Of a stretch of 30,327 nt of DNA, positions 19,991 through 25,147 are shown piece after piece. The position numbers and the translations under genes are program-made. The notes under the pieces are model-generated. The model saw only the letters and a list, made by a program, of their open reading frames with translations, did no database searches and was not told the DNA's origin. Within the stretch, counting starts at the first letter, position 1. Every line of letters begins with the position of its first letter. This DNA is from an uncultured Chloroflexota bacterium (GTDB taxonomy: Bacteria; Chloroflexota; Limnocylindria; Limnocylindrales; CSP1-4): NCBI GenBank assembly GCA_903924005.1, contig CAIXZV010000263.1, forward strand, positions 1 through 30,327, given 5' to 3'.

Positions 19991-22024
19991 TCAGGCCTTG
20001 CTCGCCTTGGCTGCGTACATCGCCTCATCCGCACGCGCGGCCAAGTCAGTTGGGGTGGATGCCTCATCCGGAAAGACCGCGATGCCAACGCTGGCGGTCA
20101 CGACAGGTGCGTCGGCAACGCCTGCGCGCAGGACCGCGGTCTTGATGCGCCCCGTGATCTCCTCAGCAATGGTGCGGCTAGCCCCGGGCACAATCAGCCA
20201 GAACTCGTCGCCGCCCGCGCGGTAGACAAGGTCGCTGCCGCGGACTGTCTCTTGGAGGGCGGCGGCGACGCGTTTCAGCAGGGCGTCACCAGCCGCATGG
20301 CCCAGACCCAGCGGCGGATCGTTGAAGGCCTTGAAGTGGTCGAGATCCAGTTCGAGCAGCGCAAACGGCTGGCTGCGGCCCACAGCGGACGCAAGATCAC
20401 GCTCAAACGACCCGCGATTGCGGAGCCCTGTCAACGGATCGTGCTCGGCGGCCACCATGACCGCATCGTGGGCCTCAGCGTTGCGCATGGCGATTGACGC
20501 CTGGGTGGCGAAGAGGCGGGCAAGCTCAAACTCGTCGGGGGAGAAGCGCTGGCGGTCCTTGCCAATCCGCGCCACGTTCAGCGTGCCAACGGTGAGCCCG
20601 TCTGCAACCAGCGGACACACGATTAGCGATTCGGGCACCACCGGCGTCCCCGGGATCTGGATTGCCCGCGGATCGTTCTGCGCGTCGTTGGCCAGGACCG
20701 CTTGGCCGTTTGCGATGGCCCAGCCGTTGATCCCCGCGTTGATGGCCGGCATGTGGGCAAGGATTGCTGCTGCCTCCGGGTCCCGCACCACAATTGCCCG
20801 TCGGACACCCGCGGCGTGGTCGAGACGGAAGATCGCAAGCGAGTCAAACGCAACCAGCGCGCCCAGCGAGTCCGCAATCTTCTCCAGCACGCTGGCAGGC
20901 TCCAGCGTGGCCAAGAGTTGTTCGCTGATCTCCAGCAGGCGGTGCTGGCGCTCAAGCCGGTTGGCAAGCTCAAGCCGCTGCCGTTCAAGCTCCGCAAACG
21001 CGTCTGCGCCCACCAGCGACTGGGCCGCGTACCCTGCAAAGACTTCCAGCATCCGCTGGTCGCCGTCACTGAAGTGGTCGTAGCCGTCACGTGACACGAC
21101 GATCACGCCCAGCACGCGCGACTCCCAGGCCATCGGCACCACGAGCATCGACTCCGCACCGCGCCGATCGCCAACCTGACGGCCGCGGCTGTCGCTCCTT
21201 GCATCGGCCAGGCGGACGGCCTGGTTGTGCTCGGCAACCCAGCCGGTGATCCCCTTGCCCATGGGCACACGCAGCTGCTCCACCGACGGGCGGCCGATGC
21301 CAAGGAACTCGCCCTGAAACGCGATCGGCTCGCACATCGCGTTGGCGGCGTCCACGCGGTAGACGCGGATTGTGTCGTGGGCGATCAGCTTGTCCGCCTC
21401 GGCGACAATCGCCTCACCGATGGCGTTGACGCCCTGGATCCGATTGAGGCGCCAGGAGAGCTCCTGCACCGCGCGCAGACGGGCCGTGTCGGAGCGGGCA
21501 TCCGCCAGCAGCAGCGCGCCTGAGACCACCGAGCCCAGTTGGCGGGCAAACAGCGCGCCAAGCTCCCGATCGGCGTCGAGCCACATGCGCCCGGCGGCAC
21601 TGTAGAGAAGGATTGCCCCAACCACCTCGCCGCGGACGACGAGCGGCAGCACAAGCACCTGCTCGATCCCGGATGCGGCGTACACATCGACAAGGCCATC
21701 GGCTCGCGCTCCGCAATCGATGACCATTGGCTTGTCGGCTGCAAGCGCGGTCATCTCCACCAGCCCGCCGCTGCGACCCACAAGCTCAATGCCGTCCACG
21801 AGCGGCTCTTCCAGCCCTTCGGTGCCCGTCAACTGGAGCGCGAGCTTGCCGGCCGTGCGCACCCAGGCGGATGCCTGACGCGTGTGGAAGAGGCTGGTGG
21901 CCGCGTGGAGCGTGGCCCGGATCAGCTCGCCGATCTCAAGATCCGCTGACACGGTCCGGAGTGCGCGGAAGAGCGCCTCTACCCGGATTGCCTCAGAGGA
22001 GTTCGTACGTGAGGGTTCTGACAT
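19991..22024 (-). CDS. Diguanylate cyclase with three GAF domains
   Basis: Three GAF-like repeats (VLPLVVRGEVVGAI, VVPMAWESRVLGVI, VCPLVADGLTVGTL); DPLTGLRN, DLDHFK, I-site RGSD and intact GGDEF. Confidence 0.9.
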   Translation of the reverse strand: MSEPSRTNSSEAIRVEALFRALRTVSADLEIGELIRATLHAATSLFHTRQASAWVRTAGKLALQLTGTEGLEEPLVDGIELVGRSGGLVEMTALAADKPMVIDCGARADGLVDVYAASGIEQVLVLPLVVRGEVVGAILLYSAAGRMWLDADRELGALFARQLGSVVSGALLLADARSDTARLRAVQELSWRLNRIQGVNAIGEAIVAEADKLIAHDTIRVYRVDAANAMCEPIAFQGEFLGIGRPSVEQLRVPMGKGITGWVAEHNQAVRLADARSDSRGRQVGDRRGAESMLVVPMAWESRVLGVIVVSRDGYDHFSDGDQRMLEVFAGYAAQSLVGADAFAELERQRLELANRLERQHRLLEISEQLLATLEPASVLEKIADSLGALVAFDSLAIFRLDHAAGVRRAIVVRDPEAAAILAHMPAINAGINGWAIANGQAVLANDAQNDPRAIQIPGTPVVPESLIVCPLVADGLTVGTLNVARIGKDRQRFSPDEFELARLFATQASIAMRNAEAHDAVMVAAEHDPLTGLRNRGSFERDLASAVGRSQPFALLELDLDHFKAFNDPPLGLGHAAGDALLKRVAAALQETVRGSDLVYRAGGDEFWLIVPGASRTIAEEITGRIKTAVLRAGVADAPVVTASVGIAVFPDEASTPTDLAARADEAMYAAKASKA

Positions 22025-22172
22025 GATCCCAGCTGGTGCCGCCACCTTGGCGAGTTGCAGCCGCTGTCCGCTACGCGGCGCACGACTCGTCTTTTGGGAG
22101 TATCAGCCACGCTGGCAGGTCGCGCACGCCCCCGATGGGTCATCGGTGGGTAGGACCTCCGGGCAACGTTTC

Positions 22173-23552
22173 CTAGCGCAGCTCACCCGGCGTGGGCCGG
22201 CGTGCCAGCCGCTCCTCACGGGCCACGGTGTCCTCATCGCCAAGCGCCACGATGCCGGACCCAAGCGCCTTGCCGCGGTCCATTCGCACGTTGGCAAGCT
22301 TCATGACCTCGCCCGGGCTCAGCGTCGTCTGACCGTCCAGCATCACGATCCCGACAGACGCGTCCACGTGCACGTCGATTTCGTAGGCATGCAGGCGGAT
22401 CGGCTGCCGGATCCTGTCCTGGATACGCGTGGCCAGACGGAGCGCCGCAGCGAGGTCTGGCACATCGTTGAGCACCAGCGAGAACTCGTCGCCGGCACGG
22501 TTCAGGCGGGCAACTGCATCGGTTGCGCGCACGGCGGCCAGCAGCCGTCGCGCCGTGACCCGCAGAACCTCGTCACCGGACTCGTACAGGTACGTGTCGT
22601 TGACGGTCTTGAAGTGGTCGAGGTCCAGCAGGAGCACCGCCGCGCGCTGCTCGCCGCTGCGGGCGCGGTCCACGGCGGCCGCAAGGGCAGGGTTAAACCC
22701 GAGGTCATTGAGCAGACCGGTCTTCTCGTCGTGGCGCAGTGCCTCAAGACGGTTATGGGCCTGCCAGATGATGAGGGCAAGCACGATCGACACGATTGGC
22801 GCCCACCAGCCGATGGCCAGATACGACGCCGCCATCAGCCACGCGAGGATCCCCTCGGCCAGAAACGTTGTGCGAACGGACGTGTCAATGATGCGGCTGG
22901 CCTCTCTGAGGCTGACGTCAGACCGCATGGCGAGCGTCGGGATGACCAGGACCAGATTGGCCAAGGCAAACCCAAAGGCGGTCACGCTGGCCACGATGAA
23001 GAACGCGAGCGTGGGATCGCCCGCAAGTGGTTTGGCCAGAAGACCCCGCGCCACCTCTCCGGCGAGGCCACCCGCGATGGCCGCCAGCATTGACACAGCG
23101 TGATTGGACAAGATGCCGCGCAGGGGCTGGGAGCGAAGCTCGCGGATCTCCATCTCGGAGACCAGACCCATCAGCCCGCCGGCCACGGGTCCGCCAAGCA
23201 CGGTGCCAGCAACGATGAACGGCATGCTGAAGGTCATCACGCTGCCGCCCGGTCGCTCGGCGGCACGGATGCCGCCAAGGAGGCCAAACCCCAGCCAGAA
23301 GGCGAGCCCGCCGATGAGCGCTGCCTGCGGGCTCAGGCCAGGCCAGGGGAGCGCGATCTCGCGCCGCAGATAGCCGGCCGCAACCACGGCCGTCATCCCA
23401 ACGCCTGCGGCCAGGATCTGGAAGACAACCCACAGTGTGAGCTTGCTGGGGACAACCTCGAGCGCAAACTGCAGACCCACGGCTCGCCGCACGGCGACCG
23501 TGGTGCCCGGGCGCTGCGAGGTCCGGCTCGGGACCGTCCCTGACGCAAACAT
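22173..23552 (-). CDS. Membrane-bound GGDEF-domain protein with AGDEF variant active site
   Basis: Multi-TM N-terminus; DEKTGLLN, LLDLDHFKTVND, I-site RATD, then ARLNRAGDEF; SVGI motif. Confidence 0.85.
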   Translation of the reverse strand: MFASGTVPSRTSQRPGTTVAVRRAVGLQFALEVVPSKLTLWVVFQILAAGVGMTAVVAAGYLRREIALPWPGLSPQAALIGGLAFWLGFGLLGGIRAAERPGGSVMTFSMPFIVAGTVLGGPVAGGLMGLVSEMEIRELRSQPLRGILSNHAVSMLAAIAGGLAGEVARGLLAKPLAGDPTLAFFIVASVTAFGFALANLVLVIPTLAMRSDVSLREASRIIDTSVRTTFLAEGILAWLMAASYLAIGWWAPIVSIVLALIIWQAHNRLEALRHDEKTGLLNDLGFNPALAAAVDRARSGEQRAAVLLLDLDHFKTVNDTYLYESGDEVLRVTARRLLAAVRATDAVARLNRAGDEFSLVLNDVPDLAAALRLATRIQDRIRQPIRLHAYEIDVHVDASVGIVMLDGQTTLSPGEVMKLANVRMDRGKALGSGIVALGDEDTVAREERLARRPTPGELR

Positions 23553-23557
23553 GACGA

Positions 23558-23656
23558 CTACTCCCCCTTGGCCGCGGCTGTCGCGGCGATGTCCTCGGAG
23601 TGCGTCGGCGGGACGACTTCCAGGTCGCTGATCTTGGAGCGCGCGAAGTCAGACAC
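23558..23656 (-). CDS. 32-aa small ORF (MSDFARSKISDLEVVPPTHSEDIAATAAAKGE)
   Basis: AAGGAGG (23670-23664) lies 7 nt before GTG 23656; GC3-rich codons; stop is 5 nt before the cyclase ATG, and its last codons supply that gene's AAGGGGGAG RBS. Confidence 0.6.
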   Translation of the reverse strand: MSDFARSKISDLEVVPPTHSEDIAATAAAKGE

Positions 23657-23968
23657 CGACAGCCCTCCTTGGTATGGCGTCTCTGTGCGCTCGCGTGGTC
23701 CCGGTACCCCGTGAGCAACGACACTGTTGTCGGCTATATCTGACACCCCGTGGGACAACCACGGTACCCATCAGGGGGGTCATAGGGCGGTAGTACCTTC
23801 GTACTGTCAGAGCTCTGCGGCAGGGCATCGCAACCGCACCTCAGCGCACTCGAGTGTCCGGCGCAACAAGGCGCTGCAACTGCCGCGAGCAGGCGTCGAG
23901 TCCCCCGATGGTCCTATTCGGCTCCGTGCATCTCTGCCGAGATTGGGCCACTGTGTCACCCTGAGAGC

Positions 23969-25147
23969 ATGGAACACCCGCGAACGCTGGCCGCGCTGAT
24001 CGTGGTGGCCGCCTTGGTGACAGCGTGTGGTTCGGCGAGCAGTCGCGGAACCGCGTGCTTCCAGATTGGCCCGGCGCGGTCGCCGGGCACGGTCCCAGGA
24101 GATGGCAGCCCTATTCCGTCAGCGTCGGCTGGCACGGGCGTCCAGGAGCCGGCCAACACGGTGCGCTTCGGGCGCAAAGCCATCGTTGACCCGCAGGCGG
24201 GAAACAGCGAGGCCATCGTCTTCCTGCTGCCAGATGGCTGGCAGTACCAGGGCAGCATCCAATGGGTCCCGCAGTGGGAGCGTGTGGCGTTCCCGCAGAC
24301 CCGGATGTCTGATCCGGCCACCGGTATCACCATCGACTGGCTGCCCATCCAGGACTTCATCTGGTTCCAGGCGCCGGCGGGGTTTGATGCGCCCATCGGC
24401 GGCAACTACCAGGGCAAGGTCTACCAGCCCCCGGTCACGGACCCGGCGCAGTTCGTCTCGCAGTTCTGGGCGCCAACCACCCTGCCTGAGCTGCAGAACG
24501 CGCAACTCGTCAGCGTCAACCAGGTCCCGGAGCTCGCCACCGAGTTCAAGAAGGGCTTCGGCGGTCCGGCAGATGCTGCGGCGTATCGCCTGCGCTACGC
24601 GTACCAGCAGGACGGACAGCCGTGGGAGGAGGACGTCTCGTTCGCCCTGCTCTACTCGGGCAACGCGGACTTCATGTCCTGGTACGTCAACTTCGCCTAC
24701 ACGGCGCGCGCCCCGCGGGGCCAGCTTGACGCCAACGCCGGGATCATCTCCACGATTGTCGCCAGCCGGACGTCCACGCCCGAGTGGGAGGGGATCTACC
24801 GCTTCGTCCAGCAGTTGTTCGTCAAGGGCATCCAGCAGCAGATGGCGGACACGGTGGCCTTCGGCAAGATGCTGGCCCAGTACCGGGCGGAGATCCAGGC
24901 GCTGCAGGCGCAGGTGACCGCCGAGCGCCAGGCGTCCGAGGACCGCATTGCGCAGCTCCGCGGCGAGATCCTGAGCGGCGTCACGAGCTACAGCGACCCA
25001 GTCAACGGGGGCTACGTCCAGCTGCCCACCGGGTACAACCAGTACTGGGTGAACGACAAGGGCGAGTACCTGAGCTCCAGCCAGCCGGGCTTTGACCCAA
25101 ACACGCTCAACGACGGGTTCTGGCAGCTGCTGCAACCGAAGGGCTAG
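23969..25147 (+). CDS. Hypothetical lipoprotein with C-terminal coiled coil
   Basis: Lipobox VTAC; strongly coding-like codon usage; heptad-like segment QYRAEIQALQAQVTAERQASEDRIAQLR. Confidence 0.8.
   Translation: MEHPRTLAALIVVAALVTACGSASSRGTACFQIGPARSPGTVPGDGSPIPSASAGTGVQEPANTVRFGRKAIVDPQAGNSEAIVFLLPDGWQYQGSIQWVPQWERVAFPQTRMSDPATGITIDWLPIQDFIWFQAPAGFDAPIGGNYQGKVYQPPVTDPAQFVSQFWAPTTLPELQNAQLVSVNQVPELATEFKKGFGGPADAAAYRLRYAYQQDGQPWEEDVSFALLYSGNADFMSWYVNFAYTARAPRGQLDANAGIISTIVASRTSTPEWEGIYRFVQQLFVKGIQQQMADTVAFGKMLAQYRAEIQALQAQVTAERQASEDRIAQLRGEILSGVTSYSDPVNGGYVQLPTGYNQYWVNDKGEYLSSSQPGFDPNTLNDGFWQLLQPKG

Follow-up and report, generated by a model that had tools for sequence, protein, structure and literature searches.

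A small upstream reading frame retained in close orthologs as a candidate translational-coupling leader of a membrane GGDEF gene in an uncultured Chloroflexota bacterium

Why does a 32-codon reading frame with a strong ribosome-binding site stand directly in front of a gene for a membrane GGDEF protein? The question arises from the window, a DNA stretch of 30,327 nucleotides. The initial annotation regarded the encoded peptide either as a ligand or modulator of the membrane sensor or as a leader peptide controlling the translation of the cyclase. The locus was compared here with its orthologs. The reading we favour, with a probability of roughly 0.55, is that the small upstream frame (uORF) is a sequence-independent frame translationally coupled to the cyclase gene and forms the leader of a two-gene c-di-GMP operon. 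Both the translation of the uORF and the dependence of the cyclase on it are what we infer.

The elements of the locus are collected in Table 1. An AAGGAGG Shine-Dalgarno (SD) sequence had been placed 7 nt ahead of a GTG at 23656 that opens a 32-aa frame, and these coordinates hold on the minus strand. The stop codon indeed lies 5 nt ahead of the ATG (23552) of the multi-transmembrane GGDEF protein, and the last codons of the peptide form the ribosome-binding site of that gene, GGGGGAG. The uORF has the layout expected of a translationally coupled frame. It carries its own SD and start codon, precedes the main ORF in the same orientation, ends only a few nucleotides away from the main start and contains the main SD. 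The coupling proposal is built on the short stop-start gap and on the position of the downstream SD inside the upstream frame. Coupling is known to be most efficient at short stop-start distances, and RNA structure and SD sequences influence it (reviewed in PMC12548453).

Table 1. Positions of the features at the cyclase locus and of related elements on other contigs.
Feature	Coordinates	Strand	Basis or remark
uORF Shine-Dalgarno AAGGAGG	23664..23670	-	read from sequence
uORF: GTG start (23656-23654), 32 sense codons, TAG (23560-23558)	23558..23656	-	sequence and orthologous frames
Hairpin, 6-bp GC stem and 5-nt loop	23571..23587	-	in the last third of the uORF, just 5' of the cyclase SD
Cyclase Shine-Dalgarno GGGGGAG	23561..23567	-	within the final three codons of the uORF; nearly invariant, n=7 sequences
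Membrane GGDEF protein, 459 aa, six-helix N-terminal domain and AGDEF-site GGDEF domain	22173..23552	-	Pfam, model, alignment
Six-helix domain, residues 36-272	22740..23450	-	
GAF-GAF-GGDEF protein, canonical GGDEF site	19991..22045, probable start ATG 22025	-	Pfam, motif
Upstream module, fixed 68-nt span	23737..23806	-	conserved across sub-clades
Partial third copy of the upstream box	22137..22161	-	80% over 25 nt
Divergent neighbour gene, 392 aa, lipoprotein-like N-terminus	23969..25147	+	without Pfam family
Orthologous uORF frames	L032:694-792:+, L120:718-816:+, L123:1448-1495:+, L124:1373-1420:+, L140:2146-2193:-, L125:25-168:+		
Module copies	L146:929-997 (G000 contig C416); L139:1503-1570 (G054 contig C44)		

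The source genome is a metagenome-assembled genome of an uncultured organism (638 contigs, 79% complete, 68.9% GC). Judged by the names of homologs, the organism belongs to the Chloroflexota, near Limnocylindria. The sequence of the locus was found without any difference in two independent assemblies from other samples, so constraint is not assessable from population variation. Orthologs were collected through a protein database and contig look-ups. The closest cyclase orthologs are in two species genomes, G054 (82% identity) and G045 (77%, ending at a contig end). Further close orthologs are on the metagenome contigs L120, L123, L124 and L125, and on L140, which was reached via the neighbour gene. 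Orthologs with a cyclase identity of at least 74% are called close here, and those with 40-62% distant. A metagenome scan with the cyclase protein as query was dominated by generic GGDEF patterns and recovered no close relatives.

One alternative is that the frame is untranslated or inconsequential. The SD-like purine run, GTGTCTGAC, the hairpin and the cyclase SD would then be DNA or RNA regulatory elements, and the frame would be open by chance in GC-rich sequence. We regard this as possible but unlikely. It is favoured by the statistics of the source genome, from which alone the uORF pattern is not beyond chance. The 7-mer AAGGAGG is not enriched genome-wide, with 360 sites on both strands and about 380 expected from base composition by our own arithmetic, and 39 of the 360 sites are followed by a start codon within 4-10 nt and then by an ORF of less than 50 codons. 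SD-led initiation is used in this genome, though modestly, as GGAGG ahead of long ORFs shows a spacing peak at 6-9 nt over a codon-periodic background. Few stop codons are expected at 69% GC. The high GC3 of the window uORF (0.91) resembled a coding signal, but the orthologous frames are inconsistent in this respect (0.60-0.87), with L124 and L125 at background level. An untranslated frame would also suit the neutrally evolving middle of the uORF and the presence of other conserved non-coding blocks in the leader.

The property of the uORF that goes beyond chance is its retention among orthologs. The uORF is kept in six distinct close orthologs. In all six, an SD-like GGAGG, GGGAGG or AGAGG lies 6-7 nt ahead of the GTG and the stop falls exactly 5 nt ahead of the cyclase ATG (position -8). 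Five of the six open with the codons GTG-TCY-GAC, and L140 opens with GTG-TCT-GTC. The frame has 32 codons in the window and in G054 with its variant L120, 15 codons in L123, L124 and L140, and 47 codons in L125. These lengths reflect two independent changes, of 51 and 45 nt, each divisible by three, whereas the other indels of the same leader (1, 2, 6 and 10 nt in the alignment) do not respect the reading frame. Survival of the frame through indels is a further property expected of a coupled uORF, and it is seen here in two independent length changes only, a number that also leaves room for an untranslated frame. In L125 the flanking sequence is barely alignable, while the SD, the start and the frame of the uORF persist. 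The chance that both length classes stay in frame and free of stops is about 0.03, which is a rough estimate of our own based on a stop frequency of 0.02 per codon. A longer, 62-66-codon version of the frame was rejected, as it is not kept in L123, L124 or L140.

The same properties were looked for at 29 more distant homolog or paralog loci. Only three matched; two of these frames exceed 110 codons, and the other is a 43-codon ORF on L134. Such an ORF is rare in comparable leaders, which argues against an untranslated frame, as do the fixed stop, the in-frame length changes and the persistence of the frame in L125. The initial annotation had proposed a search for conserved small ORFs with dN/dS values. 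The search recovered the frame in the six close orthologs, but the uORF was absent from the scanned leaders of orthologs with a cyclase identity of 62% or less, and the dN/dS of the frame was above one, as described below. By these comparisons the uORF is a retained, clade-specific feature.

The peptide sequence itself evolves differently from the cyclase. Between the window and G054, the uORF has a dN of 0.29, a dS of 0.23 and a dN/dS of 1.3, and the cyclase has a dN of 0.11, a dS of 0.75 and a dN/dS of 0.15. The amino acids of a small-protein modulator are expected to be under purifying selection, and the ratio of 1.3 and the variable length of the uORF do not show this. The window and G054 share 94% identity in the leader. 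This was considered as a sign of strong constraint and rejected, because the locus is a recombination mosaic. This is concluded from the dS between the window and G054 (L032; 23553-25147 compared), which is 0.15 for the neighbour gene and 0.75 for the cyclase. The identity falls sharply within the uORF, with a breakpoint near codons 7-8, and the 53% identity in the middle of the uORF corresponds to the neutral divergence of the cyclase side. Compared with L123, L124 and L140, the leader shows discrete conserved blocks only.

The residues common to the orthologous peptides are the first 2-3 and the last 3-7, the latter Ala-rich and ending with (K/R)-G-(E/R). The conserved Ala-rich stretch can be attributed to the nucleotides of the hairpin and the last three residues to the nucleotides of the cyclase SD, and every conserved residue of the peptide thus has an explanation at the nucleotide level.

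These data make a functional role of the peptide, whether as a small protein that binds to or modulates the six-helix sensor domain or as its ligand, very improbable. Co-transcription and tight coupling would fix the synthesis ratio of peptide and cyclase, the frame is retained in close orthologs, and the sensor domain matches no known family, all of which would agree with a dedicated partner. However, peptides of 15, 32 or 47 residues are alike only at their two ends, and their net charge flips among orthologs (-3.4, +0.6 and +1.6). The peptides are hydrophilic (GRAVY -0.5 to 0.15), and hydropathy revealed none of the transmembrane helices, hydrophobic stretches or export signals expected of a membrane modulator. 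Orthologs with the same sensor domain but without the frame were also found. A tBLASTn search with the peptide, as the initial annotation had suggested, gave no copy elsewhere in the genome and none at the orthologous loci. Among 1.8 billion representatives the peptide had no small-protein relatives; the four matches obtained were all long coiled-coil repeat proteins, and these repeat-driven matches were judged spurious. MgrB-PhoQ, SafA-PhoQ and MzrA-EnvZ are systems in which the small membrane-protein modulators have a transmembrane helix and a conserved sequence. MgrB, SafA and MzrA resemble the present case in that a small ORF is genetically linked to a membrane sensor, but the window peptide is hydrophilic, variable in length and unconstrained. 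The role of ligand or modulator first assigned to the peptide is thus poorly supported, given its variable length, the dN/dS of 1.3, the missing hydrophobic segment and the missing relatives. The elevated ratio could also be read as diversifying selection on a length-variable peptide that is a lineage-specific partner of the xGDEF sensor domain, the two forming a co-evolving pair that controls c-di-GMP. We consider this reading very improbable.

The hairpin inside the uORF is predicted in each of the six orthologs, with folding energies of -6 to -14 kcal/mol. In register, 84% of the cells are paired, compared with 27-65% after sliding the alignment, and in two of the pairs both partners have changed. 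These results give modest support for conservation of the hairpin as an RNA structure. The cyclase SD is not consistently sequestered by local folds across the orthologs. Two other predicted pairings were rejected. Between the upstream box and the cyclase SD, the predicted long-range pairs are all invariant, without compensatory changes. In L123 and L140, a possible GUCAGA/UCUGAC pairing that would involve the uORF start is disrupted by changes that are not compensated. None of the Rfam 15 covariance models matched the window at the gathering score. With E values up to 5, positions 21950-24050 gave chance-level matches only, and riboswitches or known RNA families were not found there.

A leader that senses a signal was considered as well. 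Stalling or slow termination in response to a metabolite, to amino-acid supply or to an antibiotic would tune the access to the cyclase ribosome-binding site. The stop is separated from the ATG by 5 nt and falls over the cyclase SD, which a ribosome stalled during termination would block. The last residues are conserved as an Ala-rich stretch followed by (K/R)-G-(E/R), and occluding or stalling uORFs are documented (PMC13285730, PMC12121999). We nevertheless hold such a leader to be improbable, since the nucleotides of the hairpin and the SD account for the conserved residues. The uORFs share no arrest motif or regulatory codon run beyond the residues encoded by these two elements. Pro-Pro stalling was rejected, as the Pro-Pro of the window is missing from G054 and from the 15-codon forms. 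No terminator-like site was found in the leader, and the alternative pairings examined there showed no compensatory changes. The trpL/peTrpL leader (PMC7298713), ErmCL (PMC5499644) and the topAI uORF (PMC12121999) are similar in having a short translated ORF upstream of a regulated gene. Attenuator and arrest leaders, however, need specific codons or nascent-peptide motifs together with alternative RNA structures or terminators, and no such motif, codon run or terminator was seen here.

In the coupling model that we prefer, ribosomes would load at the strong SD and GTG (23670-23654) and cross a neutrally evolving spacer, in frames of 15 to 47 codons. The translating ribosomes would melt the hairpin just 5' of the cyclase ribosome-binding site and terminate 5 nt ahead of the cyclase ATG, on top of GGGGGAG. 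The cyclase would then be started by re-initiation or through its unfolded ribosome-binding site, which would be translational coupling. The peptide itself would have no function, and the act of translation would be what matters. Several findings were counted against coupling. Since the cyclase owns a good SD that local folds do not consistently sequester, it need not depend on the uORF. The 7-mer SD lacks genome-wide enrichment, and the GC3 signal is inconsistent among the orthologs. The number of independent length classes is three, and the chance estimate given above is not overwhelming. Orthologs at an identity of 62% or less manage without the uORF. The proposal of a leader peptide controlling cyclase translation therefore stands in its general form, as the frame, the SD, the GTG and the stop are kept in six orthologs through in-frame length changes, but not as far as the peptide is concerned, because its sequence is unconstrained.

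Supplying ribosomes to a coupled gene may be the only role of short uORFs (PMC12548453), and validated examples of uORFs come from Sinorhizobium (PMC13285730) and from the B12-riboswitch uORFs of Mycobacterium (PMC11260477). The present locus resembles these ribosome-delivering uORFs (PMC12548453, PMC13285730, PMC11260477) in having a leader ORF with its own SD, a stop-start distance of few nucleotides, the downstream SD inside the leader ORF and a peptide sequence that is dispensable. In contrast to them, a c-di-GMP enzyme lies downstream, the organism is an uncultured member of the Chloroflexota, the coupling is proposed from sequence, and the variable spacer is separated from the downstream SD by a small conserved hairpin. 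The earlier claim of an undescribed signalling system is unwarranted, since ribosome-delivering uORFs have been described (PMC12548453, PMC13285730).

If coupling is true, the locus would be a clear case from nature of a uORF maintained for the act of translation only. The gene behind it encodes a second-messenger enzyme, the phylum (Chloroflexota, Limnocylindria-like) is little studied, and the control of c-di-GMP would gain a translational level. Current views are not overturned, and the main practical value lies in correct annotation. The locus also gives a warning that a strong SD and a high GC3 in one genome do not make a signalling peptide.

The downstream protein carries a GGDEF domain (Pfam PF00990) at residues 274-431, with E=3e-28 and 99 bits against a cut-off of 23.8. 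In the AlphaFold2 model (mean pLDDT 79.7), residues 37-273 form six long helices, in agreement with hydropathy. The C-terminal domain of the model is close to solved GGDEF domains (Z 24.5), with an rmsd of 1.6 over 162 residues to 4urs. The site departs from the canonical GG(D/E)EF signature. When aligned to solved GGDEF domains, the protein has two additional residues ahead of AGDEF, and LY occupies the GH position, as had been read from the letters. In the homolog family (19 sequences, down to 42% identity) the motif is xGDEF, with x being A, K, R or T; the 2-residue insertion is present, the GH pair is absent and RxxD is kept. Canonical spacing before the signature was found only in the most distant homolog (38% identity). 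The RxxD motif and the metal- and substrate-binding residues are conserved in the 19 homologs, with R342, D345, D310, N318 and G326 invariant and D327 kept in at least 90%. The initial annotation was right that some AGDEF variants remain active, as the AGDEF site of VCA0965 from Vibrio cholerae can still make c-di-GMP (PMC3974145). The window cyclase is like VCA0965 in having Ala for the first Gly of the signature, but in its family the 2-residue insertion is added, the GH pair is missing and the first position accepts A, K, R or T. Synthesis of c-di-GMP by the inserted AGDEF site is possible and cannot be judged from the sequence.

The six-helix domain had no Pfam match at E values up to 10 and no NCBIfam match, and none was found for it in the 19 homologs. 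Its fold shows a weak likeness to the S-components of ECF transporters (Z 10.8-12.6; 4hzu_S Z 12.6, 4tkr Z 11.6). A language-model search gave MASE9 (PF20972) at 0.83, which is a weak lead only. This unclassified sensor domain and the membrane xGDEF family with an insertion at the catalytic hairpin deserve notice in their own right.

A second GAF-type GGDEF gene on the same strand had been reported correctly, and it encodes the GAF-GAF-GGDEF protein of Table 1. Gene callers in other assemblies place its start 149 nt past the cyclase stop, and the two genes keep their synteny in the orthologs. A partial third copy of the upstream box lies between the cyclase stop and the start of this gene; it is deleted in G054 and L120, and loosely similar in L123 and L124. 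The GATACTCC block downstream of it is conserved in all five sequences. In L123 (2881-3406) the spacer between the two GGDEF genes is 527 nt long, compared with about 150 nt elsewhere, and a 31-codon gene was called within it.

The upstream module is probably a promoter or operator of the operon. The upstream box does not recur as a repeat across the genome, and a large hairpin predicted for it was rejected, as it is broken in the paralogous copies. In the source genome and in G054, these copies precede a Peptidase_M73 (camelysin/TasA-like) gene whose divergent neighbour is a serpin gene. The similarity between the modules of the cyclase operon and of the camelysin side runs about 40 nt further downstream. 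The module common to the cyclase operon and the camelysin-like gene possibly marks a shared regulon, and such a promoter-like module next to a camelysin/TasA-like gene would be a hint of a biofilm regulon.

The divergent 392-aa neighbour is syntenic with the cyclase in L123, L124, L140 and G054. It has more than 170 homologs with E below 1e-20 in metagenomes of Chloroflexota and Actinomycetota. In distant orthologs (L134 at about 1160-1296, L127 and L002/L003), the sequence GGAGTGCCCCC(T)GRTGGA was found just upstream of the cyclase start, and it resembles the palindromic core of the upstream box of the window. The 43-codon ORF of L134 is SD-led and overlaps the cyclase ATG in the sequence TGATG.
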